Positions 9,426 to 42,200 of a DNA stretch of 64,000 bases are shown here, in pieces. The notes under the pieces were generated by a model, which did no database searches, was not told where the DNA came from, and saw nothing but the letters and a program-made list of their open reading frames with translations. How positions within the stretch are numbered: position 1 is the stretch's first letter; each line of letters opens with the position of its first letter. This DNA is from Phycisphaerales bacterium (GTDB lineage Bacteria > Planctomycetota > Phycisphaerae > SM23-33 > FEN-1343): assembly GCA_003171335.1 (NCBI GenBank), contig PMYD01000025.1, positions 2,682-66,681 of the forward strand, written 5' to 3'. The position numbers and the translations under genes were made by a program.

Positions 9426-9435
9426 TGAAAAAGAA

Positions 9436-10098: not shown

Positions 10099-10216
10099 GT
10101 CGCCAGTTTAGAAGGAGCCGAGCAAATTCCAAATGCGAAATTCAAAAGGAACCGGACAGTGAGGCGAAGCCATGCGGCGCGAGGTGGCAAGCGTTGTAAG
10201 GTGGCATGCGTTGTAA

Positions 10217-10358: not shown

Positions 10359-10364
10359 TAATAC

Positions 10365-11597
10365 TTAACGGCCCTTCAATCGGTGGTACATCTCCAGCGC
10401 CGCCGGGAAGGGGCCGAGGGCCCGCTCGAGGATGCCCAGCGTATAGGCGATGGTCATGCCGTAATTGGCAACCGGCACGCCCGCCGCACGGCAGCGGAGC
10501 AGGCGCGAGAGCATCTCGCGGCGGTTCCACATGCAGGCACCGCAGTGGATGACGAGTTTGTAGGTCGAGAGGTCATCGGGGAAGTCGTGGCCCTGCACGT
10601 GCGTGAAGTCCATGGTGCCGCCGACATATTGCGTGAGCCAGCGCGGGATCTTCACGCGGCCGATGTCATCACCGATGGGGTGGTGGCTGCACGCCTCGGC
10701 CACCAGGATGCGGTCGCCGGGGCGGAGCTGCTCGATGGCCAGCGCACCCTCGACGAACACGTTCAAATCGCCCTTGGCGCGGGCGAAGACGATGGAGAAC
10801 GAGGTCAGCGGAATATCCTTGGGCGTGTCGCCGGCCACCTTGAGAAAACCCTGGGAATCGGTCACGACCAGGGCGGGGGGGCGCTTGAGCCGGTCCAGGG
10901 CATCGCGCAGCTCGCGCTCCTTGACGACCAGGCAGTACGCATCCACATCCAGCACATCGCGGATGGCCTGCACCTGCGGCAGGATGAGCCGGCCCTTGGG
11001 GGCCTCCAGGTCGATGGGCACGACCAGCATGACCAGCTCGCCCGCGCGCACGAGGTCGCCGATGATGGCCGGGGCGTTGATGAAATCCTCCGGCGCGGCC
11101 TTGATGAGCGCCTCGCGCAGGTCCAGGATGCCCTCGCCCTTGGAGGCGACGGTGTGGACGATGGGAATCTTCCTGCCCTTGAGGTCCTTCAGGAGCGCCG
11201 CATCGGGCTTTCCCAGGTCGGACTTGTTGAACACGACGATGGCCGGGGTCTTTCGCTCCGCCAGCTCGGCCAGGATGGCCTGTTCAAACGGACCCCACTC
11301 GCCGGCGGCCGTGACGAGGATGCCGACATCCGTGCGGTCGAACACCTGCCGCGTGCGCTTGACCCGCAGCTCGCCCAGCACGCCCACATCGTCGATGCCG
11401 GCGGTGTCGATGAACAGCACCGGGCCGATGGGCAGCAGCTCCATGGGCTTTTCCACCGGGTCGGTGGTCGTGCCGGCGATCTCCGAGACGATCGACACCG
11501 CCTGGCGGGTCATGGCGTTCAAGAGCGAGCTCTTGCCGACATTCCGCCGGCCGAAGATGCCGATGTGCAGACGAAAACCTTTGGGAGTACTTCTCAT
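10365..11597 (-). CDS. hydF: [FeFe]-hydrogenase maturation GTPase HydF
   Basis: N-terminal GTPase P-loop GIFGRRNVGKSSLLNA. C-terminal HydF cluster-binding motifs ..EACSHHPIGDD.. and ..IHCGACMWNRRE.. (CxH...HCxxC). The track's start 11603 is TTG; the ATG two codons in (complement of 11595-11597, MRSTPKGF...) is more likely. Confidence 0.85.
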   Translation of the reverse strand: MRSTPKGFRLHIGIFGRRNVGKSSLLNAMTRQAVSIVSEIAGTTTDPVEKPMELLPIGPVLFIDTAGIDDVGVLGELRVKRTRQVFDRTDVGILVTAAGEWGPFEQAILAELAERKTPAIVVFNKSDLGKPDAALLKDLKGRKIPIVHTVASKGEGILDLREALIKAAPEDFINAPAIIGDLVRAGELVMLVVPIDLEAPKGRLILPQVQAIRDVLDVDAYCLVVKERELRDALDRLKRPPALVVTDSQGFLKVAGDTPKDIPLTSFSIVFARAKGDLNVFVEGALAIEQLRPGDRILVAEACSHHPIGDDIGRVKIPRWLTQYVGGTMDFTHVQGHDFPDDLSTYKLVIHCGACMWNRREMLSRLLRCRAAGVPVANYGMTIAYTLGILERALGPFPAALEMYHRLKGR

Positions 11598-11603
11598 GTT
11601 CAA

Positions 11604-11784: not shown

Positions 11785-13176
11785 TCAAGACCCCAGCCGG
11801 GTTACGTTTTCCGGACTGATCAGCTTATCAAATTCCTCGCCGGTCAAGATGCCTTGCTCGATGACCACCTCGCGCACGCTGCGGCCGCTGCGGCCGGCAT
11901 CGAGGGCGATTTGCTGGGCGGCGGGGTAGCCGATTCTCTCGACCAGGGCGGTTACAGCCGCCGTGGCGGAGCGGACCTGGGCGCTGCAGCGGTCGCGGTC
12001 GGCCTCGATGCCCTCAACGCACAGCCGGCGGAAGATGGAGCAGGCGGCGGTGAGGAGCTGGAGGCTTTCGAGCAGGCAGTCGGCGATGAGGGGCACGAAG
12101 GCGTTGAGTTCCAGCGAGCCCAGACTGGCGGCCTGGGCGATGGCCTGGTCGTTGGCCATGACGCGGATGGCCGCCTGCGTGACCGCCTCGGGGATGACCG
12201 GGTTGACCTTGCCGGGCATGATGGATGAACCCGCCTGGCGCGCGGGCAGGCGAATCTCCCCGAGGCCGGCCTGCGGACCGGAAGAGAGCCACCGCAGATC
12301 CGTGGAAACTTTTACGAGGCTGGTCGCCAGGGCTTTCAAAATTCCGCTGACCTCGACGAACGCATCCACATTCTGCGTGGCCTCGACGAGATTCTCCGCC
12401 CGCGCCAGACCCAGGCCGGTGATATCGCGCAGATGCTCCACGGCGCGGAAGATGAACTGCCGCGGGGCGCCCAGCCCTGTGCCGATGGCTGTACCGCCCA
12501 GGTTCACCACGCGCAGCCGCTCTTCGCACTTGTACACCCGCCAGCGGTCGCGGCTGAAGGCCTCGGCATAGGCGGACATCTCGCGGCCCAGCGTGGTCAA
12601 GACGGCATCCTGCATCTGCGTGCGGCCGACTTTGACCACATCGGCCAGGGCCTTCTCCTGAACCTGGAAGGCCTCGAGCAGGGCGGTGATCTCGCGTTCC
12701 AGGTCGCGCAGCATGCGGATGGCCGCGACTTTGAGCGCTGTGGGGTACGTGTCGTTGGTGGACTGGTGCAGGTTCAGGTCATCCAGCGGGCTGATGGCCT
12801 CGTAATCGCCGAGCTTGCGGCCGAGAATCTGCAGCGCGCGATTGGCCAGCACCTCGTTCACGTTCATATTGGTCGATGTGCCGGCCCCGCCCTGGAGGGC
12901 ATCGACGCGGATATGCTCATCCAGCAAGCCCTCGGCCATCTCCGCGCACGCCTGCTCAATGGCGATGCTCTTGGCATCGTCCCACTTGCCCAGCTCGTGA
13001 TTCGTCCGCGCGCACGCCAGCTTCACCGCGCCAAAGGCCCGGATGAGCTGAGGATGTATGGGTCTTCCGCTGAGAGGAAAATTTTCCAGGGCGCGTTCGG
13101 TATAAATGCCGTGGAGTGCGCCGGCGGGAACCTCGCGCTCGCCGAGGAGGTCTTTTTCTGTGCGGAAGTCAGCCAC
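11785..13176 (-). CDS. aspartate ammonia-lyase-like class II lyase (aspartase/fumarase superfamily), sitting between hydG and hydF
   Basis: Motifs TEKDLLGEREVPA, QGGAGTSTNMNVNEVLAN, HQSTNDTYPTA, GRTQMQDAVLTTLG, and signature GSSIMPGKVNPVIPE (the aspartase-like KVNPV(I/V)PE rather than fumarase KVNPTQCE). The track start 13212 is TTG inside a heptamer repeat; the GTG at complement 13174-13176 gives a canonical N-terminal length. Confidence 0.8.
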   Translation of the reverse strand: MADFRTEKDLLGEREVPAGALHGIYTERALENFPLSGRPIHPQLIRAFGAVKLACARTNHELGKWDDAKSIAIEQACAEMAEGLLDEHIRVDALQGGAGTSTNMNVNEVLANRALQILGRKLGDYEAISPLDDLNLHQSTNDTYPTALKVAAIRMLRDLEREITALLEAFQVQEKALADVVKVGRTQMQDAVLTTLGREMSAYAEAFSRDRWRVYKCEERLRVVNLGGTAIGTGLGAPRQFIFRAVEHLRDITGLGLARAENLVEATQNVDAFVEVSGILKALATSLVKVSTDLRWLSSGPQAGLGEIRLPARQAGSSIMPGKVNPVIPEAVTQAAIRVMANDQAIAQAASLGSLELNAFVPLIADCLLESLQLLTAACSIFRRLCVEGIEADRDRCSAQVRSATAAVTALVERIGYPAAQQIALDAGRSGRSVREVVIEQGILTGEEFDKLISPENVTRLGS

Positions 13177-13191
13177 AGTCGGGGACTCCAA

Positions 13192-13500
13192 ATTCCAAAT
13201 TCCAAATCCCAAATCCCAAACAACGGTTCGACCGCCCTGAGCGGCTCACCGCCGAAGGGGCTCCAAATCCCAAATTCCAAAGGGGAGCAAACATCCCGGT
13301 GCCACGGCTGCGTTGTTTGCAGCCGTGCGCTGTGTGAGTCGGTAAACGAGAGGTTCCTTGGCTTCCGCAGGACCTCTGGCAGCGCTGCCAGGTCTTGGCG
13401 CACGGCTGCAGAAGGCGCAGCCGTGGCACCAGGGACGTTTTGTTCCCATTTGGAATTTGGTGCTTGGGATTTGTTTGGGATTTGGAATTTGGGATTTGGG
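13192..13500. repeat. composite palindromic element: (CCAAATT/CCAAATC)n heptamer arms flanking an inverted pair of GTGCCACGGCTG..CAGCCGTGCGCT hairpins
   Basis: Left arm 13192-13225 and 13262-13280. Hairpins 13298-13332 and 13398-13430. Right arm 13442-13500 (GGAATTTGG..GGGATTTGGGATTTC). Lies between hydG stop and the aspA-like start. Confidence 0.8.
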
Positions 13501-13506
13501 ATTTCT

Positions 13507-14913
13507 TCACAGGTAGAGGTCCCTTTCCTGCGTCTCCCGAATCCGGCGCATTCTCTCTACAAGCTGGGTTTTGCCGGGATCCTCGGGCATCTTCTCAAGC
13601 TCGGCCGCGACCAAACGCTCGCCGGCCGTCCGCGTGGCGGGGGAGGCGTAATCGACGAGATACTCCTCCAGCGTGGTCAGCGCGTTGGGCGTGCACAGCC
13701 GCTGGATGAAGCCGGGGATGGCGAACTCCATGAAATGCTCGCCCGTGCGGCCCAGGCGGTAGCAGGAGGTGCAGAAGCTGGGGATGTAGCCATCATCCAG
13801 CAGCTCGCGCATCACGCGGTCGAGCGAGCGGACATCGCCCAGCTCGAACTGCTCGCGCTCCATCACCTGGGCATCGCCCGCCTCGGTGTAGCCGCCGATC
13901 TCGATGCGGCTGCCGGCGTCGATCTGGGAGACCCCAAAGGCCATCACCTCGCGCCGCAGCGCCGCCGGCTCGCGGGCGGTGAGGATCAGCCCGGTATAGG
14001 GGACGGATAACCGCAGGATGGCGATCAGCCGCTTGAACTGCTCATCATCGACGGCGTAGCGGCTGTCCAGGTCCGTGCCGGCGGCGGGGCGCAGGCGCGG
14101 GAAGCTGATCGTGTGCGGGCCGACGCCGTGGCGGTGCTGGAGGTACAGGGCGTGGCTGACCAGGCCGAGCACCTCGAAGCGCCAGTCGGCCAGGCCGAAA
14201 AGCGCGCCGATGCCCACATCGTCGCAGCCGGCATCCATGGCGCGGCTCAAGGCATCCAGCCGCCAGAGATAGTCGCCCTTGCGCGTGCCCGCCGGGTGCC
14301 ACTGGGCGTAGGCGCCGTGGTGGTAGGTCTCCATGAAGATCTGGTACGTGCCGATGCCGGCGGCTTTGACGAGGCGGTAGCCCTCGACATCCAGAGGGGC
14401 GGCGTTGATGTTCACGCGGCGGATCTCGCCGTGGCCGAGGCGCACCTCGTACACCTGCTTCACGCAGTCGGCGATGTAGGCGGCGTCGTACCGCGGGTGC
14501 TCGCCAAAGACCAGGATCGTCCGCTTGTGGCCCACGCGGACCATCGCCTCGACCTGCCGGCGGAGCTCCTCGGGACTCAGCGTGCGGCGGACCGAGGCGC
14601 GATTGGAGCAGCGGAAGCCGCAGTAGCCGCAGTCGTTGACGCAGTCGTTGCCGATGTAGAGCGGGGCAAAGAGCACGATGCGATTGCCGTACACATCGCG
14701 CTTGAGTTGCCTGGCGGCGGCGTAGATCTCCTCGATCAACTCCCGCTGCTCCGCGCGGAGCAGCACCGCTGTCTCCTCGACGGCCAGCGGCTGCTTCTCC
14801 AGGCTCTTGGCGATGATCTCGCGGACTTGGTCTGCCGCGGGGGCCTTGCCGGCCAACAGGCCCGACAGGTGGGCGTCGTCGATGAAATCGCTCGCCCGCT
14901 CATTCATTTTCAT
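13507..14913 (-). CDS. hydG: [FeFe]-hydrogenase maturase HydG (radical SAM tyrosine lyase)
   Basis: Radical SAM motif CVNDCGYCGF (CxxxCxxC). C-terminal HydG-specific CTSC-x22-C (..SFCTSCYRLGRTGEHFMEFAIPGFIQRLCTPNA..). ThiH-like overall. Start ATG at the complement of 14911-14913 (MKMNERASDF), or the next ATG at 14905-14907. Confidence 0.85.
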   Translation of the reverse strand: MKMNERASDFIDDAHLSGLLAGKAPAADQVREIIAKSLEKQPLAVEETAVLLRAEQRELIEEIYAAARQLKRDVYGNRIVLFAPLYIGNDCVNDCGYCGFRCSNRASVRRTLSPEELRRQVEAMVRVGHKRTILVFGEHPRYDAAYIADCVKQVYEVRLGHGEIRRVNINAAPLDVEGYRLVKAAGIGTYQIFMETYHHGAYAQWHPAGTRKGDYLWRLDALSRAMDAGCDDVGIGALFGLADWRFEVLGLVSHALYLQHRHGVGPHTISFPRLRPAAGTDLDSRYAVDDEQFKRLIAILRLSVPYTGLILTAREPAALRREVMAFGVSQIDAGSRIEIGGYTEAGDAQVMEREQFELGDVRSLDRVMRELLDDGYIPSFCTSCYRLGRTGEHFMEFAIPGFIQRLCTPNALTTLEEYLVDYASPATRTAGERLVAAELEKMPEDPGKTQLVERMRRIRETQERDLYL

Positions 14914-14976
14914 GCTTGCCAGAACACCCATACTACACCTTGCCTTGCTACACATTCGAAAAGGATCAAGTTCTTA

Positions 14977-15098
14977 GGTGCCACGGCTGTCCGCAGCCGT
15001 GCGCTGTGCGGACAACAGGGCAACCGGTTCGCTGGCTTCCAGCGGACCTTTCCGCGTTCTGGTCATTCCAGCGCACGGCTGCGGACAGCCGTGGCACC
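14977..15098. repeat. inverted pair of GGTGCCACGGCTGTCCGCAGCCGTGCGCT hairpins separated by ~65 bp
   Basis: First hairpin 14977-15006, second (inverted copy) 15070-15098. The stop of the REC-HK gene (15063) falls between them, so the second hairpin encodes that protein's last ~11 residues. A near-identical pair occurs at 42736..42860. Confidence 0.85.
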
Positions 15099-16238
15099 GG
15101 GGACTAGACCGGGGACCAGACTCTTGCCCAACGTCACCGTAAACGTGGTGCCCACGTCCGCCTGGCTGGTGGCGGCCACATCGCCGTCGTACAGGGCGGC
15201 GAGTTTCTTCACGATGGACAGGCCCAGGCCGCTGCCGACGATCCGCCGCGTCTTGTCGTTGCGGATGCGGCCGAATTCGGTGAACAGCTTGCCGATTTCC
15301 TCGGCCGACATGCCGATACCCGTGTCGGCCACGGCCAAGGTGACGGCCGCCGCCGACTGGCCGATCTGGACATCCACGCGGCCGTCGGGGCGGTTGTACT
15401 TGATCGCGTTGGAGATCAGGTTGTTCAGGATGATCTCCAGCTCCTGCCGGTCGGCCGTCATCACGGCCCCAGAGCCGGCCAGAGACACCGTCACGCCGGC
15501 CTCGCTGGCTTGGCCGGCGAAACTCTCGACGACCTCCGCCGCCACGGCCGCCACATCCAGCTCGACCAGCTCGCGTTTCATCTGGCCCGACTCGATCCGA
15601 GTCAGGTCCAGCAGGTCCTGGATGAGCTTGCGCATGGCGGTCAAACGGAACAGCGAGCGATCGAGCATCTGGTCGTACGTGGCTTGGTCGCTACCCGCCT
15701 GGCGGTGCAGAACGATCCGCAGGTAGCCCTCGATGGCGCCGATGGGGGCCTTGAGCTCGTGGGCCAGCACGGAAAGAAACTGGAAGCGCACCTGACGCTT
15801 CTCCTGGGCCAGCCGGCGGGCCTCGCGCTGGAGCAGCAGGTGCTTGGCCGCCTTGCGCACCGCGCCTTTGAGTTCATCGGGCGTGAAGGGTTTGGCAAGA
15901 AAGTCGTACGCGCCGCGCTTCGTGGCGGCCACGGCCGTGTCGAGCGAGGCGTAGGCGGTGATCATCACCGTCAGCACGTCCTGCTCGCCATCGGCCAGCT
16001 TACCCAGCACGTCCAAACCGCTCATGCCCGGCAGCTTGTGGTCCAGCAGCAGGATGTCAGGGGCCTGGGACGCGATCGACTCGAGCGCCTGCTCGCCGGT
16101 GGCCGCCTCGGCGACTTCAAAGTGCACGTCCCCGTTGATTTCGCGCAAGCGGACGGTGAAATCGCGCAGCGCCCGCTTAACGCCTTGGCGCATGCCAGGC
16201 TCATCGTCGACCACGAGGACTTGAAGGGGGCTGTTCAT
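15063..16238 (-). CDS. hybrid two-component protein: N-terminal receiver (REC) domain fused to HisKA/HATPase histidine kinase
   Basis: Verified ATG (complement of 16236-16238): MNSPLQVLVVDDEPGMRQGVKRAL... REC features: DD pair, ..LLLDHKLPGMSG.., K in ..FLAKPF... HisKA H-box ..LAHELKAPIGAIEGY... HATPase ..DTGIGMS.., ..GSGLGLSIVKK... Confidence 0.75.
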   Translation of the reverse strand: MNSPLQVLVVDDEPGMRQGVKRALRDFTVRLREINGDVHFEVAEAATGEQALESIASQAPDILLLDHKLPGMSGLDVLGKLADGEQDVLTVMITAYASLDTAVAATKRGAYDFLAKPFTPDELKGAVRKAAKHLLLQREARRLAQEKRQVRFQFLSVLAHELKAPIGAIEGYLRIVLHRQAGSDQATYDQMLDRSLFRLTAMRKLIQDLLDLTRIESGQMKRELVELDVAAVAAEVVESFAGQASEAGVTVSLAGSGAVMTADRQELEIILNNLISNAIKYNRPDGRVDVQIGQSAAAVTLAVADTGIGMSAEEIGKLFTEFGRIRNDKTRRIVGSGLGLSIVKKLAALYDGDVAATSQADVGTTFTVTLGKSLVPGLVPGATAVRSRALE

Positions 16239-16260
16239 AGTGAGTGCCTCTGTTCTTTTC

Positions 16261-16397
16261 GATTTCAAATTTCAAATTTCAACTTTGGTGGCACAGGCTT
16301 TCCAGCCTGTGGATTCTGGCCGTCACAGGCTGGAAAGCCTGTGCCACCACTCCCGCTGTTTCCGGCAGTTAAATTTGAAATTTGAAATTTGAAATCC
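16261..16397. repeat. palindromic element: (TTTCAAA)n heptamer arms flanking two inverted GGTGGCACAGGCT-TTCC-AGCCTGTGG hairpins
   Basis: Left arm GATTTCAAATTTCAAATTTCAACTTTGG (16261-16286). Hairpins 16287-16312 and 16324-16350. Right arm AGTTAAATTTGAAATTTGAAATTTGAAATCC (16367-16397). Lies between the HydS-HK stop and the REC-HK start. Confidence 0.85.
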
Positions 16398-16398
16398 C

Positions 16399-18405
16399 TC
16401 ATTCTTTTCCTTCCCTGCGTGGCAGCGTAATGGCGAAAGTCGTTCCCGTCGGCCCGGCGGCCTTGTCGGCGTTGGAGGTGACCTGGATGTCGCCGCGATG
16501 CATCTTCACCACGCCATACGCCACCGCCAGCCCCAGGCCGGTGCCCACGCCGATCTGCTTGGTCGTGAAGAACGGCTCGAAGATCTTCGTCAGGTTTTCC
16601 TTGGGAATACCCACGCCGGTATCGCTGACGGCCAGCGTGACTTTATCCTCATCGCCGCCGGCGCGGAGGGTCAACGTGCCGCCGGCCTCCATGGCTGCCA
16701 CGGCGTTGGTCAGCAGGTTGGTGAGCACCTGGATCATCTGGTCGGCGTCGAGGTCCGCCTCATCGTCATCTTCGCTCAGGTCCACGTGCGTTTCCAGGCG
16801 AATGGAGTCTGGAATATTCACCGAGCGCAGCGCCCGCTGAATAAGCTGGCGCAGGCTGACCGGCTGGAGCAGCACCTTGTTCTGCCGGGCAAAGTGCAGC
16901 AGACCGGAGACGATGCGCTTGCAGCGGTCGGCCTGCTCGGTGATCACGCTCATGTCCTGGCGCAGTTGCTCATTGCCGGCGTGCTCTTCCAGCAGCAGGT
17001 GCGCGTACATCAGCACGATGCCCAGCGGGTTATTCACCTCATGCGCGATGCCCGCGGCGAGCTGGCCCATGCTGGCCAGCTTCTCCGACTGCATCAGCGC
17101 CTCCTGGGCGCTGGCAAGTTCCTTATGCGACTCGGCCAACTGCGTGACGGTGGTGTGGAGCTGGTCGATCGTGTACGGCAGGCACATCTCCGTCTCGGCC
17201 AGGCCCTTGAAGATGGCCACGGCGTGCTCGCGGCAGGTGTCGTAGCCGCAGGCGCCGCAATTCAGCTCATCGGCGGCGGTCTGCTTGCCGATGCGCGCCA
17301 GGATCTGCCGGACCTCCTCTTCAAACGGCACGCTGATATGCTGGTCCTGCGCGGTGTAAGTGCGAGACAGGTCCAGGTCGGCCAGGCTCTCCATGTCGCG
17401 CTGCCAGCGGGCCTGGTCGAAATGGCGCAGCCGCTGGCGGACGTACTCGGCCACGCGCGCCCGGCGGAAGAAGACCGGGGTCTCGGGGGAGATGCCCGGG
17501 CCAGTGATGCAGCCCTTGCAGGCTAAGAGCTCCAGCAGCCTCGCGTCCAGGTCGCCGGTCTCGAATTCCTTGATCGCATCCACAAAATCCGTGCGGCCGT
17601 CGGCGGCGACGACGTGGCCTTCGAGCAGATCCTCGTGGATGTCGGCCGCCTGCAGCAGGCCGCGGCTGATGGAAAACAGCGCCCCAAGGCCCGCGTGCGG
17701 CGCATCAAAATCATCCTGCGCCGCCGGCTTAGGGACGATGCCCGTCTGCTGAAACATCGCCCGCAGCTCGGGAAATGTCAGCGCGGCATCCACCTCGCCG
17801 GTGAGGTGTGGGTTATCCACCTCGCCCTTTTTGGCCACGCAGGGTCCGATGAACACCACGCGCAGCTTGTCATGCCGGCCGCGGCGCAGCGCGCGGGCGA
17901 TGGCCACCATGGGCGAGACGATCGGCGCCAGGGCGTCCACCAGGTCGGGGTGATATTTTTCCACGAACGCCACGACCGCCGGGCAGCTTGTGGCGATGTA
18001 CCGCCGGCCGGCCGAGGCTTCCAGCAGCTTGCGGTAGCGGTCGGCCACCAGGTCGGCCCCGAAGCCCACCTCATGCACGGCCGCGAACCCCAGCTCGCGA
18101 ATCATGCCCACCAACTGCCGCCAGGAGCACTCGGTGAACTCCGCGGGAAAGCTGGGCGCCAGCACGGCGACCACGGGCTCACCCCCCGCCAGCAGCGTGC
18201 GGACGTGAACGGTGGAGTCCAGGACGACCTTGGCCTTCTGGCTGCACACGCGGACGCAGTTGCCGCAGCCGATGCAGCGTTCCGCCAGCACCTCGGCCTG
18301 GCCCTTGCCGATGCGGATGGCCTTGGCCGGGCACTCCCGCACGCAGGTGTAGCACACCCGGCAGCGCTCTTTGGCGGTCTGGACGAGATGGGTGGCGGAG
18401 GTCAT
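16399..18405 (-). CDS. sensory [FeFe]-hydrogenase-like protein (HydS-type H-domain) fused to a histidine kinase
   Basis: Verified ATG (complement of 18403-18405): MTSATHLVQTAKE... Two ferredoxin [4Fe-4S] motifs: CRVCYTCVRECP and CIGCGNCVRVC. Degenerate H-cluster motifs: ATSCPAV (L1 with a single Cys), GPCVAKKGE (L2, Gly in place of Met), ELLACKGCITGPG (L3, Leu in place of Met). Extra C-terminal NCGACGYDTCREHAVAIFKGLAETEMC (Cx2Cx4Cx16C). Then HisKA H-box ..GIAHEVNNPLG.. and HATPase ..DTGVGIP.., ..GTGLGLAVAYG... Confidence 0.75.
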   Translation of the reverse strand: MTSATHLVQTAKERCRVCYTCVRECPAKAIRIGKGQAEVLAERCIGCGNCVRVCSQKAKVVLDSTVHVRTLLAGGEPVVAVLAPSFPAEFTECSWRQLVGMIRELGFAAVHEVGFGADLVADRYRKLLEASAGRRYIATSCPAVVAFVEKYHPDLVDALAPIVSPMVAIARALRRGRHDKLRVVFIGPCVAKKGEVDNPHLTGEVDAALTFPELRAMFQQTGIVPKPAAQDDFDAPHAGLGALFSISRGLLQAADIHEDLLEGHVVAADGRTDFVDAIKEFETGDLDARLLELLACKGCITGPGISPETPVFFRRARVAEYVRQRLRHFDQARWQRDMESLADLDLSRTYTAQDQHISVPFEEEVRQILARIGKQTAADELNCGACGYDTCREHAVAIFKGLAETEMCLPYTIDQLHTTVTQLAESHKELASAQEALMQSEKLASMGQLAAGIAHEVNNPLGIVLMYAHLLLEEHAGNEQLRQDMSVITEQADRCKRIVSGLLHFARQNKVLLQPVSLRQLIQRALRSVNIPDSIRLETHVDLSEDDDEADLDADQMIQVLTNLLTNAVAAMEAGGTLTLRAGGDEDKVTLAVSDTGVGIPKENLTKIFEPFFTTKQIGVGTGLGLAVAYGVVKMHRGDIQVTSNADKAAGPTGTTFAITLPRREGKE

Positions 18406-18429
18406 GACAACCTCGGGCGTATTGCTGAA

Positions 18430-18551
18430 GGAATTGCGAATTGCAAATTGCAAATTGCAAATTGGGGAACTCCGAACCTCCCGCCGCTGTGGGCAGTGAG
18501 TGGCGATCCGGTGTCCCTGAATTGGCAATTTGCAATTCGCAATTGGCAATC
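18430..18551. repeat. palindromic element: (AATTGCA)n left arm and inverted (TGCAATT/TGGCAATT) right arm flanking an ~55 bp GC-rich core
   Basis: GGAATTGCGAATTGCAAATTGCAAATTGCAAATTGG ... GAATTGGCAATTTGCAATTCGCAATTGGCAATC. Sits immediately upstream of the HydS-HK start and downstream of the CheY gene stop. Confidence 0.8.
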
Positions 18552-18555
18552 TCTT

Positions 18556-18972
18556 CTAGCTGTCGTTTGGCGCGCAGGCCTTGTCGCCCAGCAGCCGGGC
18601 GACCTCCGCGCGGATCTGCTCAGCGCGGACGGGTTTATCGAGGATCAGGTCGGCCTTGACCCAGCTCTTGGCGTCTTCATCGTTGGGCACGAACGACAGG
18701 CCCGTGGCGGCGGCGACGGAGGTCAGCAGGATGACCGGCACATCCCCGTGCACGCGCTTGAGGTGGTAGGCCAGCACGAAGCCGCTGTCCATCTGCTCCA
18801 TCATCAGGTCCAGGATGGCCAGGTCGGGCTTTTGGCCTAAGAGCAGCTCCTCGCCCTGGCGCTGGCTGTGGCCGGCCTGCACCTCGTAGCCGTCGGCCTG
18901 GAGCACCAAGGTGAGTTGGGAAACGATGTCTTCGTCATCATCCACAATCAAGATTCTGGGCTTGCTGTTCAT
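18556..18972 (-). CDS. single-domain CheY-like response regulator (receiver only)
   Basis: Verified ATG (complement of 18970-18972): MNSKPRILIVDDDEDIV.. REC hallmarks ..DLAILDLMM.. and ..LLTSV... No output domain. Confidence 0.75.
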   Translation of the reverse strand: MNSKPRILIVDDDEDIVSQLTLVLQADGYEVQAGHSQRQGEELLLGQKPDLAILDLMMEQMDSGFVLAYHLKRVHGDVPVILLTSVAAATGLSFVPNDEDAKSWVKADLILDKPVRAEQIRAEVARLLGDKACAPNDS

Positions 18973-18992
18973 TTTCAAATGTCTCTCAGTTC

Positions 18993-19115
18993 GATTGCAA
19001 ATTGCCAATTGCAAATTGCCAATTAAAAACTCTTCCGCAGGAAGTGCCGCTTGATCGGCGCGGCGCCTCGCCGCAGCTCTTCAATTTGCAATTTGCAATT
19101 GGCAATTGGCAATCC
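18993..19115. repeat. palindromic element with (AATTGCA/AATTGCC) heptamer arms, related to 18430..18551
   Basis: GATTGCAAATTGCCAATTGCAAATTGCCAATT ... CAATTTGCAATTTGCAATTGGCAATTGGCAATCC. Fills the hydA-stop / CheY-start spacer. Confidence 0.8.
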
Positions 19116-20837
19116 TTACAGGGGAACTTCCCGCTTATGGTAGTGCGTGTGCAACAGGTGGTGGCTCTTCTCGCCCAGGGGCTTGCCCAGGAACTCGTCG
19201 TACAGCCGCGTGATCCAGGGGTTGGCGTGACTGACGCGGCGCGGCTCATCGCGGTCGATCTTGTACAGGGCCTGCATGCGCGCCCGCACCGACTCGAGGT
19301 CGGCGCCGATGGGCTGGCCGCCGCCGTTGATGCAGCCGCCGGGGCAGGTCATGATCTCGATGAACTGGAGGTCTTTGCGCCCGGCCCGCAACTGGTCCAA
19401 GAGCTGGCGGGCGTTGCCCAGGCCGCTGGCGACGGCGGCGCCGACGTCCAGCGTGCCGATGGTGGTGCGAAGCTCCTTGATGCCCTTCATGCCGCGCAGC
19501 GGCTGGATCTTCAAATCGCCCATCTCCTGGCCGGTGATCAGGTAGTACGCCGTGCGGACGGCCGCCTCCATGACGCCGCCGGAGGCGCCGAAAATCTTGC
19601 CGGCGGTAGTGCGCTCGCCGAAGGGCGTATCGGCCGCCTCGGCCTCCAGGGCCGCCAGGTTCACGCCGAACATCCGCAGCAACTGGCCCAGCTCGCGGGT
19701 GGTCAGCACGTAGTCCACATCGGGGACGTGGTTGGGCTGCATCTCCGGCCGCGCGCACTCGAACTTCTTGGCCGTGCAGGGCATGATCGACACGCTCACG
19801 ATATTGCCCGGCTCGATGTTCTCGCGCTGGGCGAAGAAGCTCTTGATGATCGCCCCCATCATCTGCTGGGGGCTCTTGCACGTGGAGAGGTTGGGGATGA
19901 ACTCCGGGTAGAACTGCTCCACGAATTTGATCCAGCCGGGCGAGCAACTGGTCATCATGGGCAGCACGCCGCCGGTGGTGACGCGATGCACCAGCTCGCT
20001 GGCCTCTTCCATGATGGTCAGATCGGCGGCAAACGAGGTATCAAAAACGCGGTCAAAGCCCACGCGGCGCAGGGCGGCCACCATCTTGCCGTCCACGTCC
20101 GTGCCGGGCTTTAAGCCGACTTCCTCGGCCAGGCTCACGGAGACCGCCGGGGCATGCTGGGCGATGACCAGCTTGGTCGGGTCGGCCAGGGCCGCCACCA
20201 CGGCGTCGAGGCTGGAGCGCTCGGACAGCGCGCCCGTCGGGCAGACCAGGATGCACTGCCCGCAGTTGATGCAACTGGAGAGGTTGAGCCCGGCGTTAAA
20301 CGCCGTGCCCACGAACGCCCGGCTGCCGCGGGCGATGAAATCCACGGCCGAGACGGTCTGGTATTCCTCGCACATGCGGACGCACCGGCCGCACAGGATG
20401 CACTTGCTCGGGTCGCGCAGGATGGAGGGGCTGGAGACATCCAGCTCACGTTTGCTCTTGGCGCCGCGATACAGCCGCTGGCGCACGCCCAGGTCCATCG
20501 CCAGGTGTTGCAGTTCGCACTTGCCGCCGCGCGGGCAGTACAGGCAGTCGTCGGGGTGGTTGCTCAGGAGCAGTTCCACGATGGTCCGCCGGGCCTCCAG
20601 CACGCGCGGGGTGCGGGTGCGGATCTTCAGCCCTTCGCTCACCGGGCAGGAGCAGGCGGTGACCAGGTTGCCCGTGCCTTCCACCTCGACCACGCACAGC
20701 CGGCAGGCGCCGCTGGGCGCCAGCCCGTCCATGTGGCACAGCGTGGGCACGTGAATGCCCTCGCGCCGCAGCGCCAGCAGAATCGTCTCGCCCGGCTTGG
20801 CCGCAATCTCGCGGCCGTCCGCTAGAAAAGTAGTCAT
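19116..20837 (-). CDS. hydA: [FeFe]-hydrogenase catalytic subunit HydA (M3-type, CpI/bifurcating-like), with an unusual L1 motif
   Basis: Verified ATG (complement of 20835-20837, GAGGAT SD). N-terminal 2Fe-2S ferredoxin-like domain. His-ligated cluster motif HPDDCLYCPRGGKC. Two 4Fe-4S motifs CILCGRCVRMC and CINCGQCILVCP. H-cluster motifs MMTSCSPGW (L1, normally TSCCPxW), MPCTAKKFE (L2), EIMTCPGGCINGGGQP (L3). Confidence 0.9.
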   Translation of the reverse strand: MTTFLADGREIAAKPGETILLALRREGIHVPTLCHMDGLAPSGACRLCVVEVEGTGNLVTACSCPVSEGLKIRTRTPRVLEARRTIVELLLSNHPDDCLYCPRGGKCELQHLAMDLGVRQRLYRGAKSKRELDVSSPSILRDPSKCILCGRCVRMCEEYQTVSAVDFIARGSRAFVGTAFNAGLNLSSCINCGQCILVCPTGALSERSSLDAVVAALADPTKLVIAQHAPAVSVSLAEEVGLKPGTDVDGKMVAALRRVGFDRVFDTSFAADLTIMEEASELVHRVTTGGVLPMMTSCSPGWIKFVEQFYPEFIPNLSTCKSPQQMMGAIIKSFFAQRENIEPGNIVSVSIMPCTAKKFECARPEMQPNHVPDVDYVLTTRELGQLLRMFGVNLAALEAEAADTPFGERTTAGKIFGASGGVMEAAVRTAYYLITGQEMGDLKIQPLRGMKGIKELRTTIGTLDVGAAVASGLGNARQLLDQLRAGRKDLQFIEIMTCPGGCINGGGQPIGADLESVRARMQALYKIDRDEPRRVSHANPWITRLYDEFLGKPLGEKSHHLLHTHYHKREVPL

Positions 20838-20852
20838 GCCATATCCTCGTTA

Positions 20853-20975
20853 CCGTGGCACGGGCGTCTCGCCCGTGAGTCGCACGGGCATCTTGCCCGT
20901 GATCCGGCCGTTTCTTCTCAGTTTCCACGGGCGAGACGCCCGTGGCACTCATGGGCGGGACGCCCATGCTACTCT
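20853..20975. repeat. cluster of four CACGGGCG-NNNN-GCCCGTG family hairpins in the hydB-hydA intergenic spacer
   Basis: CACGGGCGTCTCGCCCGTG, CACGGGCATCTTGCCCGTG, CACGGGCGAGACGCCCGTGGCAC, CATGGGCGGGACGCCCATG, all read directly. A second cluster of the same family is at 38676..38795. Confidence 0.85.
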
Positions 20976-23900
20976 TAATCCGGTTGCGTGAACTCCAGGT
21001 CGCAGCGCAGGCAGCGGCGGGCCTCCTTGACGGCATCCGCCTCGCTGATACACAGCTCGACCTCGGCGAAGGTGCACTTGCGCTGGCCCACGGGCAGCTC
21101 GGGGCACTTGACGCGCTCGACGATTGTCTCCGACTCCTCATCGTCGCCGCCGCCCGCCACGGGCGCCACGTACACCCCCGGCACGATGGCCTTGGGCAGC
21201 ACGCGCATGGCCTTGCCGCGGACGAACCGGTCGATCATGGCCGCCGCTTGCTTGCCGGTGCCCACCGCCGCAATGACGGTGGCCGGCCCGGTCACGGCGT
21301 CGCCGCCGGCGAAGATGCCCGTGCGACTGGTCTGGAAGCTCTCGCCGTTGGTCGCCACCGAGCCCCAGCGCGTAAGCGTCAATTGTTCGAGACCCTCGGT
21401 CTCGGGCTCCTCGCTGATGGCCACGACCAGCGTGTCCAGCTCCAGGTCGAATTCCGAGCCGGCGATCGGCACGGGCCGTTGCCTTCCGGAGGCATCGCGC
21501 TCGCCCAGCTTGTTGCGCTGCAGGCGCAGGCCGGTGAGCTTGCCATCTTTCGTGTGCACGGCCAGCGGGGCGACCAGCTCTTCAAGCTTGACGCCCTCTT
21601 GCAGCCCGGCCTCGACCTCTTCGTGGTAAGCCGGCATCTCCTCGCGCGTGCGGCGGTACAGCACCGTGACGCTGGTGACGCCTTTTTGCCGCAGGGCCAC
21701 GCGGGCGGCATCCATGGCGGAGTTGCCGCCGCCGATCACGCCCACCCGCCCGTGCGCCAGCTCCTGCCCGTGCAGGTTATGGGCCTTGAGGAAGGTCATG
21801 CTCGGGATGACGCCGCGGGCATCCTCGCCGGCTAGATCAAGCTTCTTGGACTTATGAGCGCCCGTGGCCACATAGACCGCGCTAAAACCCTGGGCCAGCA
21901 GGTCGTCCAGGCTGAAATCGCGGCCCAGTGCCGTGTTGTAGCGGATCTCGACGTTGGGATTGGTCAGCGCATCGATCTCCCGCCGCAACAGATCGCGCGG
22001 CAGCCGGTACGCCGGGATGGCGCCCACCAGCATGCCGCCGGGCTTGGCCTCGCGCTCAAAGACGGTCACGCGATGGCCCATCAGCGACAGGCAGTTGGCG
22101 GCCGTGAGGCCCGATGGCCCCGCGCCGATGACGGCGATCTTCGCCGCATTGGCCGCCGCCGGCGCCACCGCGGGCGTACCGACGCCGGGGCTGACGTGGT
22201 CCACGACGAACCGCTTGAGCGTACGCACGGCCACCGACTCACCGCCGGTTGAGCCGGCGCGGCAGGCGTGCTCGCACGGGTGATGGCACACGCGGGCGCA
22301 GGCCGAGGGGAACGGGTTACTCTGCCGGATCACCCGGTAGGCCTCCTCGTATTCGCCGCGGCCGATGTGGGCCACGTACCGCCACACTTCCGTGCCGGCG
22401 GGGCAGGCGTTCTGGCAGGGCGCGCCCACCAGGCTCTTGCACGCCCCGGCGGGGCAGCGGCGCTCGAAGACATGCGCCTCGTATTCCGCGCGGAACCATT
22501 TCAGCGTGCTCAGCACCGGGTTGGCGGCGGTCTGACCTAAGCCGCACAGGCTGGTGGCCTTGATCATCTCGCCCAGCCGCTCCAGGTGCATGATGCCCTG
22601 CACCCGCAGCAGGCTGTCGAAGGGGCTCTCCTGGCGCGGGCTGCGCGTCAACGCCTGGAGGATTTCCAGCATGCGCTTGGTGCCTTCGCGGCAGGGAATG
22701 CACTTGCCGCAGCTCTCCGACTGGATGAACTCCATGAAGAACTTGGCGAAATCGACCATGCAGGTCGCCTGATCAACCACCACCAGGCCCCCCGAACCCA
22801 TGATGGTCCCAAACTTCTTGAGCGCCTCGTAATCGGTCGGAATATCCAGCTCTTTTTCCGGCACGCAGCCGCCGGAGGGCCCGCCGATCTGCACGGCTTT
22901 GCACGCCTTGTTGTTGGGAATGCCGCCGCCGATATCAAACACCACCTGCCGCAGCGTGGTGCCCATGGGCACCTCCACCAGGCCGGTGCGGCGGACCATG
23001 CCCGAGAGGGCGAACACCTTGGTGCCCTTGGAGCTGGCCGTGCCCATGGCGGCGTACCACTGCGGGCCAATGTCAAGAATAAGGGGCAGATTCGCCAGCG
23101 TCTCCACGTTGTTGATGACCGTGGGCTTGCCGAACAGGCCCTTGACCGCCGGGTAGGGCGGCCGCGGCCGCGGCATGCCGCGCCGGCCTTCGATGCTGTG
23201 GATGAGCGCCGTTTCCTCGCCGCACACGAACGCGCCGGCGCCCTGCTTGATGACGATCTCCAGGGAGAAGCCGCTGTCCAGCACGTTCTCGCCGATCAGC
23301 CGGTACTGCCGCGCCTGGGCCATCGCCTGCTGAAGGCGGCGGATGGCCACGGGGTACTCGGCGCGGATGTAGATGTACGCCTTGGACGCGCCGATGGCGT
23401 AGGCCGCGATGAGCATGCCTTCCAGCAGCCGGTGCGGATCGCTCTCGCCCACGGCCCGGTCCATGAACGCGCCGGGGTCGCCCTCGTCGGCGTTGCAGAT
23501 GAGATATTTCTGGTTCGCCTGGGAGGCGCGGGCGAATTTCCACTTCTTGCCAGTGGGGAACCCGCCGCCGCCGCGGCCGCGCAGGCCGCTGGCTTCCACC
23601 TGGTCGCAGACTTCCTCGGGCGTCATCTTGCCCAGCACCTTGGCCACGGCCGAGTAGCCGCCCCAGGCGATGTATTCATCGATGCTTCCCGGGTCCAACA
23701 GGCCGCTGGTGGCCAGCACCACGCGCCGCTGGCGGATGAGGAACGGGTGCTCGTCGAGATAGCGCACCTGGTCCCAGGGCTTTAGCAAGAGCCCTTCCTG
23801 CCGGAACTGGCCCAGCGCCGCGCCCTCGGCGACCTTGGCATCGACCAGCACCGCCTTGAGCACGGCCTCGACCTTGTCGGCCGTGGCATTTCCAAAGCAG

Positions 23901-24259
23901 ATGCGCGTGCGGCCGGGCATCTGCACATCGAGCAGGGGCTCTTCCGAGCACAGGCCGATGCAGCCGACCTCGATCACCTCGGCATCGAGATTGCCCTTGG
24001 CGATGTACTCGCGCACGGCGGCGAGCGTTTTGCCCGCCCCAGCGCCCAGGCCGCACGTGCCGGTGCCGATGAAGATCACCGGCTTGGCCACATCCTGGCG
24101 GCGCAGGGCCGACAGCCGCCCGGCCAGCACATCGGCCCCCGCGCTCTTGGCGGCGGCCAGCGGGCCGGCGGGAATCCAGTCCAAGAGCTCGGGCGAGACC
24201 GGCCGAGCGCCCAGCCAGCAACGATCAAAAGCCACGGCAGCGGTATTAGCATCCGGCAT
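20975..24259 (-). CDS. hydB: hydrogenase NADH-dehydrogenase-like subunit HydB: NuoF (51 kDa, FMN/NAD-binding) fused to a C-terminal GltD-like FAD/NAD(P) oxidoreductase domain
   Basis: Verified ATG (complement of 24257-24259). NuoF hallmarks ..GGGGFPTGKKW.., ..LICNADEGDPGAF... Cys-rich Fe-S motifs. Then a GltD-like region: ..CQNACPAG.., ..KIAVIGAGPSGLTAA.., ..GRVGVIGGGNSAMD... Confidence 0.85.
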   Translation of the reverse strand: MPDANTAAVAFDRCWLGARPVSPELLDWIPAGPLAAAKSAGADVLAGRLSALRRQDVAKPVIFIGTGTCGLGAGAGKTLAAVREYIAKGNLDAEVIEVGCIGLCSEEPLLDVQMPGRTRICFGNATADKVEAVLKAVLVDAKVAEGAALGQFRQEGLLLKPWDQVRYLDEHPFLIRQRRVVLATSGLLDPGSIDEYIAWGGYSAVAKVLGKMTPEEVCDQVEASGLRGRGGGGFPTGKKWKFARASQANQKYLICNADEGDPGAFMDRAVGESDPHRLLEGMLIAAYAIGASKAYIYIRAEYPVAIRRLQQAMAQARQYRLIGENVLDSGFSLEIVIKQGAGAFVCGEETALIHSIEGRRGMPRPRPPYPAVKGLFGKPTVINNVETLANLPLILDIGPQWYAAMGTASSKGTKVFALSGMVRRTGLVEVPMGTTLRQVVFDIGGGIPNNKACKAVQIGGPSGGCVPEKELDIPTDYEALKKFGTIMGSGGLVVVDQATCMVDFAKFFMEFIQSESCGKCIPCREGTKRMLEILQALTRSPRQESPFDSLLRVQGIMHLERLGEMIKATSLCGLGQTAANPVLSTLKWFRAEYEAHVFERRCPAGACKSLVGAPCQNACPAGTEVWRYVAHIGRGEYEEAYRVIRQSNPFPSACARVCHHPCEHACRAGSTGGESVAVRTLKRFVVDHVSPGVGTPAVAPAAANAAKIAVIGAGPSGLTAANCLSLMGHRVTVFEREAKPGGMLVGAIPAYRLPRDLLRREIDALTNPNVEIRYNTALGRDFSLDDLLAQGFSAVYVATGAHKSKKLDLAGEDARGVIPSMTFLKAHNLHGQELAHGRVGVIGGGNSAMDAARVALRQKGVTSVTVLYRRTREEMPAYHEEVEAGLQEGVKLEELVAPLAVHTKDGKLTGLRLQRNKLGERDASGRQRPVPIAGSEFDLELDTLVVAISEEPETEGLEQLTLTRWGSVATNGESFQTSRTGIFAGGDAVTGPATVIAAVGTGKQAAAMIDRFVRGKAMRVLPKAIVPGVYVAPVAGGGDDEESETIVERVKCPELPVGQRKCTFAEVELCISEADAVKEARRCLRCDLEFTQPD

Positions 24260-24737
24260 TGGCGTGTTCCTGATGACGGCAGTCCTGGAGAATTCGTGTG
24301 CACTTGCGCGGCGTGACCTTGGCGTAGAACTCGCCGTTGATGTTCACCACCGGCGAGAGGCCGCAGGCGCCCATGCAGGCCACCACCTCGAGCGAGAAGA
24401 GCCCATCCCGGGTCGTCTGACCGGGACTGATCTTCAGCTCCTTCACCACCGCCTCCAGCACCGACAGCGAGCCTTTCACGTGACAGGCCGTGCCGCGGCA
24501 CACCTGCACGTGATACTTGCCCGGCCGCGTGAAGCGGAACTGGTTGTAAAACGTGGCGACGCCATAGATCTTGCTCGTGGGCAAGTTGAGGTGCTTGCCC
24601 ACCCGCATGATGACATCCTTGGAAAGGTACCCGTGCGCGGTCTGGATCTCCTGGAGAATGGGGATGAGCGTCTCACGCCCCGCCCCGGGGTGCCGCGCGA
24701 GAATCGGTTCAATGTCCGGCTCTACCATCGTGGCCAT
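24246..24737 (-). CDS. hydC: hydrogenase NuoE-like [2Fe-2S] thioredoxin-fold subunit HydC
   Basis: MATMVEPDIEPILARHPG.. from ATG (complement of 24735-24737, GGAAGG SD). NuoE motifs ..VQVCRGTACHVKG.. and ..EVVACMGACGLSPVV... Overlaps the hydB start by 14 nt. The ORF-track extension to 25139 is not credible. Confidence 0.8.
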   Translation of the reverse strand: MATMVEPDIEPILARHPGAGRETLIPILQEIQTAHGYLSKDVIMRVGKHLNLPTSKIYGVATFYNQFRFTRPGKYHVQVCRGTACHVKGSLSVLEAVVKELKISPGQTTRDGLFSLEVVACMGACGLSPVVNINGEFYAKVTPRKCTRILQDCRHQEHANAGC

Positions 24738-24760
24738 CCTTCCGCTGACTTTGGTACCTG

Positions 24761-24815
24761 AAAAAAACCGGCCTTCTGGAGGAGCGTTTTCGCATCGCTC
24801 CTCGCAGCCGGCCGG
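24761..24815 (-). terminator. intrinsic-terminator-like hairpin plus U7 tract on the minus strand, ~24 nt upstream of the hydC start codon
   Basis: Minus-strand RNA: CCGGCUGCGAGGAGCG-AUGCGAAAA-CGCUCCUCCAGAAGGCCGG, immediately followed by UUUUUUU (plus-strand A7 at 24761-24767). Confidence 0.5.
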
Positions 24816-24840
24816 CGGGCACGGCTGGGCCGGTTGGTGG

Positions 24841-25002: not shown

Positions 25003-25139
25003 CCTTTATATGCCACCGGGGCCAGGACGTCAAGCATCTTTTTGCGTGATTCGGACGGCATTGCCGGGCGGCAGGGAGGGTCAGAATATTGTAAGTTACT
25101 TAAGGAAAACATGTTACGTATTTTGGCGCGGGAATTCAA

Positions 25140-33648: not shown

Positions 33649-33797
33649 GCGGGGAGTTTCGCGGCGCGCTGGAGGCGGGTAGAATGACGGGTTGACGCAA
33701 CGACCGGGCTTTGCCGGCCGGAGGCTCGCTGGTGAAGGCGTGTGGTTGTTTCAGGATTTGCCGGGCCGTCGCGGCGGCCCGAAGTCAGGGAGGTTGA

Positions 33798-41941: not shown

Positions 41942-42200
41942 GGGGCACTCCCAAAAAGAGCTTCGCCCTTCTGGCCTGGAAAAAGAACTGAACTTCGTGC
42001 TCTCTATCTTCCTCTGTGGCCTTCTCCGGTCTTTGCTCCGGCCGTTTACCTCTGTTTCCTCCGTGACCTCTGTGGTTTACTTCCTGTCGTTTGCTTGATG
42101 GATGTAATCCTGCCGGCTCCTTGATATTGCGCGGCCCTGCGGTTAATCTCAATGGTTTAGCGGCGTTATGGCAACTTCAAATTCACACGAAGGTGCGGGA

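Follow-up and report, generated by a model that had tools for sequence, protein, structure and literature searches.

In a 64-kb stretch of contig PMYD01000025.1 from a Phycisphaerales bacterium (the whole stretch analysed, hereafter the window), three neighbouring genes encode a single-domain receiver (REC-only), a sensory-type [FeFe]-hydrogenase domain fused to a histidine kinase (HydS-HK) and a histidine kinase with an N-terminal receiver (REC-HK). Here, we demonstrate that genes of these three families lie together in most related loci, beside the genes of a bifurcating-type hydrogenase. We lean towards the view that the window holds one copy of a widespread and conserved kinase cascade that responds to H2, or to H2 and redox state, and travels with bifurcating-type hydCBA.

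The HydS-HK cassette and its conservation across phyla

The gene run of the window, which has a G+C content of 65%, was defined by a listing of open reading frames (ORFs), codon-position G+C and Pfam scans. Nine genes on the minus strand follow each other in the order hydC, hydB, hydA, REC-only, HydS-HK, REC-HK, hydG, a Lyase_1 gene and hydF. REC-only (18556..18972, minus strand; ORF 18556..19014) is a single-domain response regulator of 138 amino acids (aa) in which Pfam recognises Response_reg alone. HydS-HK (16399..18405, minus strand; ORF 16399..18549; 668 aa) joins the sensory-type hydrogenase domain to a class I histidine kinase (Pfam Fer4 twice, Fe_hyd_lg_C, FeS (PF04060), HisKA and HATPase_c). 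REC-HK (15063..16238, minus strand; ORF 15063..16268; 391 aa) consists of a receiver, a short helical linker, HisKA and HATPase_c (Pfam Response_reg, HisKA, HATPase_c). Start codons were placed from the sequence at ATG 18972, ATG 18405 and ATG 16238, respectively, and public gene calls agree with the resulting lengths of 138, 668 and 391 aa. A first-pass annotation of this region had described HydS-HK as bracketed by the receiver-only gene and the REC-HisKA-HATPase gene, with all of them on one strand between hydABC and hydG-hydF, and domain content, start codons and gene order bear this out. Its further statement that the three proteins lack a helix-turn-helix (HTH) or other output domain agrees with our Pfam search, which found no HTH, Hpt, GGDEF, PP2C or other output domain in REC-only, HydS-HK or REC-HK.

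The four H-cluster cysteines of HydS-HK (C141, C189, C296 and C299) are the same in all 19 aligned family sequences and align with the motifs of HydA. Equally invariant are a C-terminal Cx2Cx4Cx16C motif (C383, C386, C391 and C408; Pfam FeS PF04060, E 3e-9) and the kinase residues H455 (H-box), N563/N567, D595xGxG and GTGLGL (N, G1 and G2 boxes). Pairwise alignment with the HydA of the window sets TSC-PA against TSCSP, GPC against MPC and LLACKGC against IMTCPGGC; in the altered active-site pocket, one residue of the Cys motif is gone and neither of the methionines framing the diiron site is retained (M-to-G in MPC, M-to-L before CxxGC). Pocket changes of this type are hallmarks of the putative sensors TmHydS and TamHydS (PMC8163306). 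With its four H-cluster cysteines, the altered pocket and the Cx2Cx4Cx16C motif, HydS-HK has the sequence features of sensory-type (group C/D) hydrogenases, and with HisKA and HATPase_c matches above the Pfam cut-off it is a class I (HisKA) kinase. The PAS domain expected after the C-terminal cluster in group C (M2f) was not found in HydS-HK by Pfam at E <= 0.01. The phospho-accepting H455 lies 47 residues past the last cluster cysteine, and a helix leads straight into the H-box. An AlphaFold2 monomer of HydS-HK, computed with the 19 sequences, reached a mean predicted local distance difference test score (pLDDT) of 72.5 but stayed below 50 in linker and DHp residues 401-467 and 494-509, which made it useless for the coupling mechanism.

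The receiver residues of both partners (acidic pocket, phospho-Asp, Thr/Ser and Lys) are conserved across 58-72 orthologues. In REC-only these are D11-13, the phospho-acceptor D55, T84 and K113 (family alignment, 61 orthologues). In REC-HK they are D11/D12, D66, T94 and K116; the kinase part has H160 and conserved N, G1 and G2 boxes (alignment of 72 orthologues) and Pfam matches above cut-off, so that REC-HK is likewise a class I (HisKA) kinase. In a search of 1.84 billion representatives, the orthologues of REC-only (identity >= 40%) all stood alone, with a length of about 125-170 aa. No 'Rosetta stone' fusion of the family was found among these representatives; the long matches were generic multi-receiver proteins with ~33% identity. 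The orthologues keep two unusually conserved segments, 'DLMMExxDSGF' and 'TGLSF...SW.KAD..L.KP' (alpha4-beta5), and conservation of this strength suggests that REC-only has a conserved protein partner.

Homologues of HydS-HK number more than 7,700 at E <= 1e-10, and at least 579 candidate stretches encoding a relative are present in a species-representative genome collection. We sampled 82 loci in addition to the window and labelled their ORFs by phmmer and with home-made REC and histidine kinase profiles (individual loci are cited below by L numbers). The 82 named loci come from about 14 phyla, among them Planctomycetota, Myxococcota, Hydrogenedentota, Desulfobacterota, Acidobacteriota, Bdellovibrionota and Verrucomicrobiota; Thermoleophilia, Fibrobacterota, Bacteroidota, Spirochaetota, Elusimicrobiota, Ignavibacteriota and Latescibacteria are also represented. 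One planctomycetal locus belongs to a metagenome-assembled genome labelled Candidatus Kuenenia stuttgartiensis, and L053 lies on a Bacteroidales chromosome (OY782677.1). In 72 loci at least 2 kb of sequence downstream of HydS-HK could be assessed. REC-HK follows HydS-HK in 69 of these and a small REC is adjacent in 65; both partners are present in 63, REC-HK only in 6, REC only in 2 and neither in 1. HydA is encoded directly upstream of HydS-HK, or with just REC between them, in 64/74 loci, and maturase genes are present in 36. The estimated gaps between cassette genes have medians of 8-28 nucleotides (nt), with overlaps at about 10-20% of the junctions.

As a rule, the genes run hydA, HydS-HK, REC, REC-HK. 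Two independent look-ups with precomputed Pfam labels returned the same cassette order in one contig each of Planctomycetota and Latescibacteria. Only six loci have an orthologous REC ahead of HydS-HK (the window, L009, L012, L017, L020 and L082), and all of them carry a long HydB-GltD fusion (HydB of about 1090 aa). Some relatives have two stand-alone RECs (L006, L016, L059, L080 and L012). Overall, these data support the trio as one signalling unit that is conserved together, next to hydCBA and often next to maturase genes. It is hardly credible that unrelated two-component genes became neighbours by chance in a genome rich in them. Such richness is real, as the window contains a second trio of histidine kinase, REC and REC-HK genes (30847..35453) and a lone REC (42168..42704), but the same three families adjoin each other with operon-like spacing in 63 of the 72 loci across about 14 phyla, which contradicts a chance adjacency.

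Wiring, output and rival explanations

The kinase core of HydS-HK is matched best by ZraS (128.7 bits) and KinB (98.2 bits), compared with about 58 bits for HK853, and by AtoS (206 bits) and ZraS (185 bits) in the NCBIfam comparison. Conversely, the core of REC-HK reaches 89 bits with HK853 and 58 bits with ZraS, and its NCBIfam matches are PnpS (175 bits) and PhoR (163 bits). The receivers differ as well. The receiver of REC-HK is closest to Spo0F (66 bits), NtrC (60 bits), LuxO, NtrC1 and DctD; the HupR receiver (2jk1, 50.8 bits) is also among its matches, and MtrA is weaker at 49.9 bits. REC-only best matches RpaA (47.5 bits), YycF (41 bits), MtrA (39 bits) and RR468 (37.6 bits), with 49.5 bits for PhoB, and has no NtrC-family match in the PDB at E <= 1e-5. 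In model systems, AtoS partners with AtoC, ZraS with ZraR and KinB with Spo0F, and HK853 partners with RR468, PhoR with PhoB and PnpS with PnpR. NtrC-type regulators encoded beside the cassette match the REC-HK receiver of the window at 72-88 bits and REC-only at 37 bits. In addition, 7 related loci combine a paralogue of REC-only in one operon with a stand-alone kinase whose score is higher with REC-HK than with HydS-HK; the two genes are adjacent, with gaps of 73 nt in L010 and 31 nt in L013. Subfamily matches, NtrC-type matches and paralogue pairings together favour the order HydS-HK, REC-HK receiver, REC-HK core, REC-only.

A cascade of this order could work as follows. HydS-HK, judged by its domain content, would bind an H-cluster with sensory-type substitutions and sense H2. 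The state of the H-domain, passed on through the C-terminal four-cysteine domain and about 45 helical residues, would set the balance of kinase and phosphatase activity at H455. As the subfamily matches suggest, the AtoS/ZraS-like HydS-HK would phosphorylate D66 of the NtrC/Spo0F-like receiver of REC-HK and, by analogy with the kinase ExsG discussed below, this would turn the PhoR/HK853-like core of REC-HK on or off. REC-HK would then phosphorylate D55 of the PhoB/RR468-like REC-only, which may act on a partner through its conserved alpha4-beta5 face; an unlinked response regulator may be a further substrate of REC-HK. The likely role of such a cascade would be to tune hydrogenase synthesis, maturation or electron flow to ambient H2. 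Judged from gene position, control of hydrogenase expression or maturation by the cassette is plausible.

Several points speak against this cascade. All NCBIfam matches lie below the curated cut-offs and show subfamily resemblance, not orthology. Mutual-information covariation with average product correction, computed for both DHp domains against both receivers in 58 cassettes (effective number of sequences 48), returned clade markers as top pairs, e.g. Bacteroidota-specific ones, and confirmed no pairing. The small REC is missing and REC-HK present in 6 loci, so that REC cannot be the sole target; these loci also imply that REC-HK has an unlinked target, in addition or solely. The REC of the window lies upstream of HydS-HK and not beside REC-HK, a simple redox switch at the HydS-HK cluster is doubtful, and one paper treats a protein of the HydS-HK type as a hydrogenase subunit, BfuT (PMC11406978).

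The Pfam scan of the window covered 42 predicted genes, and ORFs < 100 aa were not scanned. Among these 42 genes, none encodes a response regulator with a DNA-binding domain, as the first-pass annotation had stated, nor an NtrC-type regulator that would accompany the sensor as in HoxJ/HoxA-type systems; LexA (35461..36129) is the sole DNA-binding protein seen. The same holds for most relatives. In the 37 loci that are covered for 9 kb on either side of the cassette, a receiver with any extra domain is absent from 27, and the absence of a DNA-binding partner is consequently the rule for the cassette and not an accident of the window. In the remaining 10/37 the outputs are heterogeneous: REC-AAA+-HTH_8 of the sigma-54 activator type beside hydC (L004 and L080), REC-HTH_8 divergent from hydC (L082, which has the gene order of the window), REC-GerE (L022), REC-Trans_reg_C (L033), a REC-Ser/Thr protein kinase after the cassette (L018:14168-15526, plus strand), a REC-formate/nitrite transporter directly upstream of HydS-HK (L015:8664-9956, plus strand), a fusion of REC with a glycine-cleavage H-protein-like domain (GCV_H-like) near hydC (L004:2102-3940, minus strand) and REC-PAS (L013). 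The glycine-cleavage H-protein is required for H-cluster ligand synthesis. The output might not be transcriptional at all: phosphorylated REC, or lineage-specific REC fusions fed by the same sensor, would act directly on proteins and provide H2 feedback on hydrogenase activity or assembly within seconds. The missing DNA-binding partner beside most cassettes, the almost invariant alpha4-beta5 face of REC, the REC-only paralogues that stand as first gene of other hydrogenase operons and the REC fusions in L015, L004 and L018 all point this way. Candidate direct targets would be the HydABC complex, the H-cluster maturation machinery and metabolite channels. We nevertheless consider a purely non-transcriptional output quite improbable.

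The first-pass annotation had proposed a multi-step phosphorelay or a sink, with the final effector encoded elsewhere. In the latter case, the system would be branched: HydS-HK would phosphorylate both receivers, REC-only would drain or buffer phosphate or feed back on the sensor, and REC-HK would signal to an unlinked DNA-binding regulator, perhaps of the NtrC type. We regard such a branched system as less likely than the linear cascade. It would agree with the dispensability of REC in the six loci where REC-HK stays, with the NtrC-family regulators found next to hydC in some relatives (REC-AAA+-HTH_8 in L004, L080 and L016, REC-HTH_8 in L082) and with the BphP1 sensor kinase, which also phosphorylates a stand-alone REC, AgR (PMC3899027). 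However, the PhoB/RR468-like REC-only does not match the AtoS/ZraS-like core of HydS-HK in subfamily, its paralogues pair with REC-HK-like kinases elsewhere, its alpha4-beta5 face is conserved beyond the needs of a pure sink, and 27/37 fully covered loci have no gene for a receiver plus output nearby. These sequence comparisons suggest that a linear cascade fits better than a sink; in such a cascade, REC-only would be the substrate of REC-HK and could itself be the output. As for a relay, no Hpt family was found in the 42 scanned proteins of the window (ORFs < 100 aa not included), so that the cassette is not a classical His-Asp-His-Asp phosphorelay. Any relay would need a route from HydS-HK via REC-only to H160 of REC-HK, with the DHp domain as substitute for Hpt, and on to a receiver. 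In the stress signalling of alphaproteobacteria, single-domain regulators are reported to carry phosphate from one kinase to another. Still, a shuttle of this kind is very unlikely here, given that the complete ATP-binding domain of REC-HK with its conserved N, G1 and G2 boxes makes an external phosphate donor unnecessary, that HydS-HK and REC-only are mismatched in subfamily and that in six loci the cassette does without the small REC. What stands of the earlier proposal is a single conserved signalling unit (63/72 loci) that lacks an output domain; the classical relay falls with the missing Hpt domain, and the subfamily evidence fits a cascade better than a sink.

The input could differ as well. 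HydS-HK might not sense H2 as such but report electron pressure, i.e. the state of ferredoxin or NAD(P)H, or be a regulatory subunit docked on HydABC; the cascade would then report enzyme load, possibly through the same downstream wiring. The two N-terminal [4Fe-4S] clusters are able to exchange electrons, HydS-HK is encoded right after hydA in 64/74 loci, the protein has been named subunit 'T' of BfuABC (PMC11406978), and a 2022 review still called the sensory role of group C/D enzymes putative (PMC8924675). On the other hand, the four H-cluster cysteines are invariant across phyla and the substitutions in the active site correspond to those seen in characterised putative sensors that do bind H2 (PMC8163306). 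We hold this alternative to be unlikely and keep to an H2-responsive, or H2/redox-responsive, cascade as the preferred reading.

Other genes and hairpin spacers of the window

The run opens with hydC (24246..24737, minus strand; ATG at 24737), the NuoE-like [2Fe-2S] subunit of a HydABC-type hydrogenase (Pfam 2Fe-2S_thioredx, E 3e-49), whose length of 163 aa is matched by the gene call in identical metagenome contigs. hydB (20975..24259, minus strand; 1094 aa) encodes a NuoF-like flavoprotein fused to a GltD-like NAD(P)H/FAD module (Pfam Complex1_51K, NADH_4Fe-4S, Fer4_20 and Pyr_redox_2; NCBIfam nuoF_fam plus a glutamate synthase small-subunit-like match). The catalytic [FeFe]-hydrogenase subunit is encoded by hydA (19116..20837, minus strand; 573 aa; Pfam Fe_hyd_lg_C and Fe_hyd_SSU); among solved structures, its product comes closest to those of electron-bifurcating HydA1, 8a6t (E 4e-189) and 7q4v. 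HydA reads TSCSPGW where the textbook form is TSCCPGW; the solved HydA1 of A. woodii (7q4v) aligns with the same variant, which is therefore a known natural form. Beyond the cassette, hydG (13507..14955, minus strand; Pfam Radical_SAM and BATS) encodes the radical-SAM H-cluster maturase and comes after the cassette in many relatives, too. hydF (10365..11603, minus strand; Pfam HydF_tetramer, HydF_dimer and MMR_HSR1) encodes the GTPase scaffold maturase. The gene between them (11785..13212, minus strand; Pfam Lyase_1 and FumaraseC_C) belongs to the aspartate ammonia-lyase/fumarase class and occupies the same place in several relatives. Its presence is explained by published work on H-cluster ligand synthesis, according to which ammonia-lyases associate with hyd operons and supply nitrogen for the dithiomethylamine ligand (PMC11736057). 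No hydE was recognised anywhere in the 64-kb window. A HydE-like radical-SAM gene adjoins hydG in many relatives, and the B12-binding radical-SAM gene at 52320-53759 of the window is of a kind other than HydE.

The second trio has the same design as the cassette and lies on the plus strand (30847-35453). It comprises a DUF4118-PAS-PocR-GAF-HisKA-HATPase kinase (30847..33648), a REC-only gene (33798..34211) and a REC-HisKA_3-HATPase gene (34212..35453) with its start one base beyond the stop of REC, all assigned by Pfam, as is the lone REC. In other genomes, a second hydrogenase operon with other subunit sizes stands after or before the cassette (L065, L066, L070, L076 and L079 of Ignavibacteriota; L019, L023 and L024 of Thermoleophilia; L010 and L013). 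These second operons open with a paralogue of REC-only, which makes single-domain receivers a recurrent part of [FeFe]-hydrogenase operons; a stand-alone REC-HK-like kinase follows in most of these loci.

The cassette genes of the window are 100-160 nt apart, and each spacer is almost wholly one nested hairpin. The same is true of almost all intergenic spacers around them. Such spacers, recognised as inverted repeats, lie at 20838-20974, 18973-19115, 18406-18555 (REC-only to HydS-HK), 16239-16398, 14956-15100, 13295-13433, 10216-10359 and 9265-9429, and further hairpin elements at 42735-42861, 45855-45944 and 27501-27660. Folded as RNA, the spacers reach -65 to -96 kcal/mol (z-scores -7 to -14). 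Their outer stems consist either of AT-rich tandem repeats, CAATTG-like or AAATTTC-like, or of GC-rich arms, for example GGTGCCACGGCTGTCCGCAGCCGTGCGC, and the arms at 14977-15098 and 42735-42861 are identical in sequence. An Rfam scan of the window gave no match. The giant hairpins look like a dispersed family of palindromic elements akin to repetitive extragenic palindromes (REP-like). Judged by position and comparison with relatives, the cassette genes of the window are likely co-transcribed.

Upstream of hydC, about 930 nt (24738-25667) are free of a convincing gene and packed with short palindromes, e.g. CGACTCCGACATTGTCGGAGTCG, which occurs twice. This region holds a sigma-70-like TTGACG-17-TATAAA element (25033..25005, minus strand), which is a consensus match only, and, by sequence and RNA fold, a terminator-like stem followed by T7 (24822..24761, minus strand), the end of which lies 23 nt upstream of the hydC ATG. 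We dropped an attenuator before hydC as a general control point because a comparable terminator-like feature was present in only 5/57 related loci. A search for sigma-54 promoters (TGGCAC-N5-TTGC, <= 1 mismatch) returned 4 matches compared with 7.4 expected, none of them upstream of hydC and 2 inside a hairpin arm.

Comparison with known systems

HydS-HK shares with the group C/D sensors (TmHydS, TamHydS, R. albus HydS and T. saccharolyticum HfsB) two N-terminal [4Fe-4S] sites, all H-cluster cysteines, the loss of one Cys of TSCCP, substitutions for the two methionines flanking the diiron site, a C-terminal Cx2Cx4Cx16C motif and a gene position beside a bifurcating-type hydABC. The position of M497 is Leu as in TamHydS, and that of M353 is Gly as in TmHydS (PMC8163306). 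In contrast to these sensors, HydS-HK has no Pfam PAS domain and its C-terminal cluster domain runs straight into the HisKA/HATPase kinase. Its partners are two-component proteins, whereas those of the group C/D sensors are PP2C or Ser-kinase proteins and an AraC regulator. Finding the interaction partners of sensory [FeFe]-hydrogenases has been called critical in a 2026 study (PMC13104023). Here, the sensor forms one polypeptide with a standard histidine kinase, and in most genomes the genes of its partners lie alongside, so that the HydS signal should be readable in vitro as phosphorylation of two defined candidate substrates. Fermenters and syntrophs of many phyla, uncultured groups included, carry the cassette together with bifurcating-type hydrogenases, and the cassette may be a common means by which anaerobes set H2 production against H2 partial pressure.

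A protein with a histidine-kinase domain, 'BfuT', has been reported downstream of the catalytic subunit in sub-type V BfuABC clusters and classed as group C3; its best HydDB match is WP_006928132.1 and the cluster organisation was reported to match that of Caldithrix abyssi, with strain DSM 13497 named as its representative (PMC11406978). BfuT is the same fusion protein as HydS-HK, and its gene likewise comes directly after that of the catalytic subunit. That paper takes a hydrogenase-subunit view, and the REC and REC-HK genes, which are conserved here, go unmentioned (PMC11406978). Our literature search found mention of the fusion protein alone, no description of the cassette of HydS-HK, REC and REC-HK and no biochemical test of any kinase-fused HydS. 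The HydS-kinase fusion is therefore already known, while its conserved REC and REC-HK partners are apparently undescribed.

A close parallel in circuit design is the BphP1-AgR/ExsG-ExsF system of Rhizobium/Agrobacterium. Biochemical work has shown that BphP1 passes phosphate to AgR and to the receiver of ExsG and that ExsG in turn phosphorylates ExsF; the kinase activity of ExsG changes when its receiver is phosphorylated (PMC3899027). As in the cassette, a soluble sensor kinase, a stand-alone REC and a kinase with an N-terminal receiver are encoded together, and the set contains no DNA-binding domain. The two differ in their input, which is light for the ExsG system and would be H2 for the cassette, and in the number of stand-alone RECs, which is two in the BphP1 system and usually one in the cassette. 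Moreover, the ExsG core is HWE-type and hexameric, whereas REC-HK has an ordinary HisKA/HATPase_c core that is nearest to HK853, PhoR and PnpS.

In the regulatory system of [NiFe]-hydrogenases, HoxBC/HupUV - HoxJ/HupT - HoxA/HupR, sensor and kinase are separate proteins, and a single NtrC-type DNA-binding regulator, whose gene belongs to the cluster, provides the output. Like the cassette, this system couples a hydrogenase-derived H2 sensor to a histidine kinase, and it controls hydrogenase genes. However, the [NiFe] sensor is unrelated to HydS-HK, and an NtrC-type regulator is absent from the scanned genes of the window and rare near relatives. In conclusion, the cassette joins a known kind of sensor, HydS, to a known kind of circuit that is made up of a sensor kinase, a receiver-controlled kinase and a single-domain receiver.

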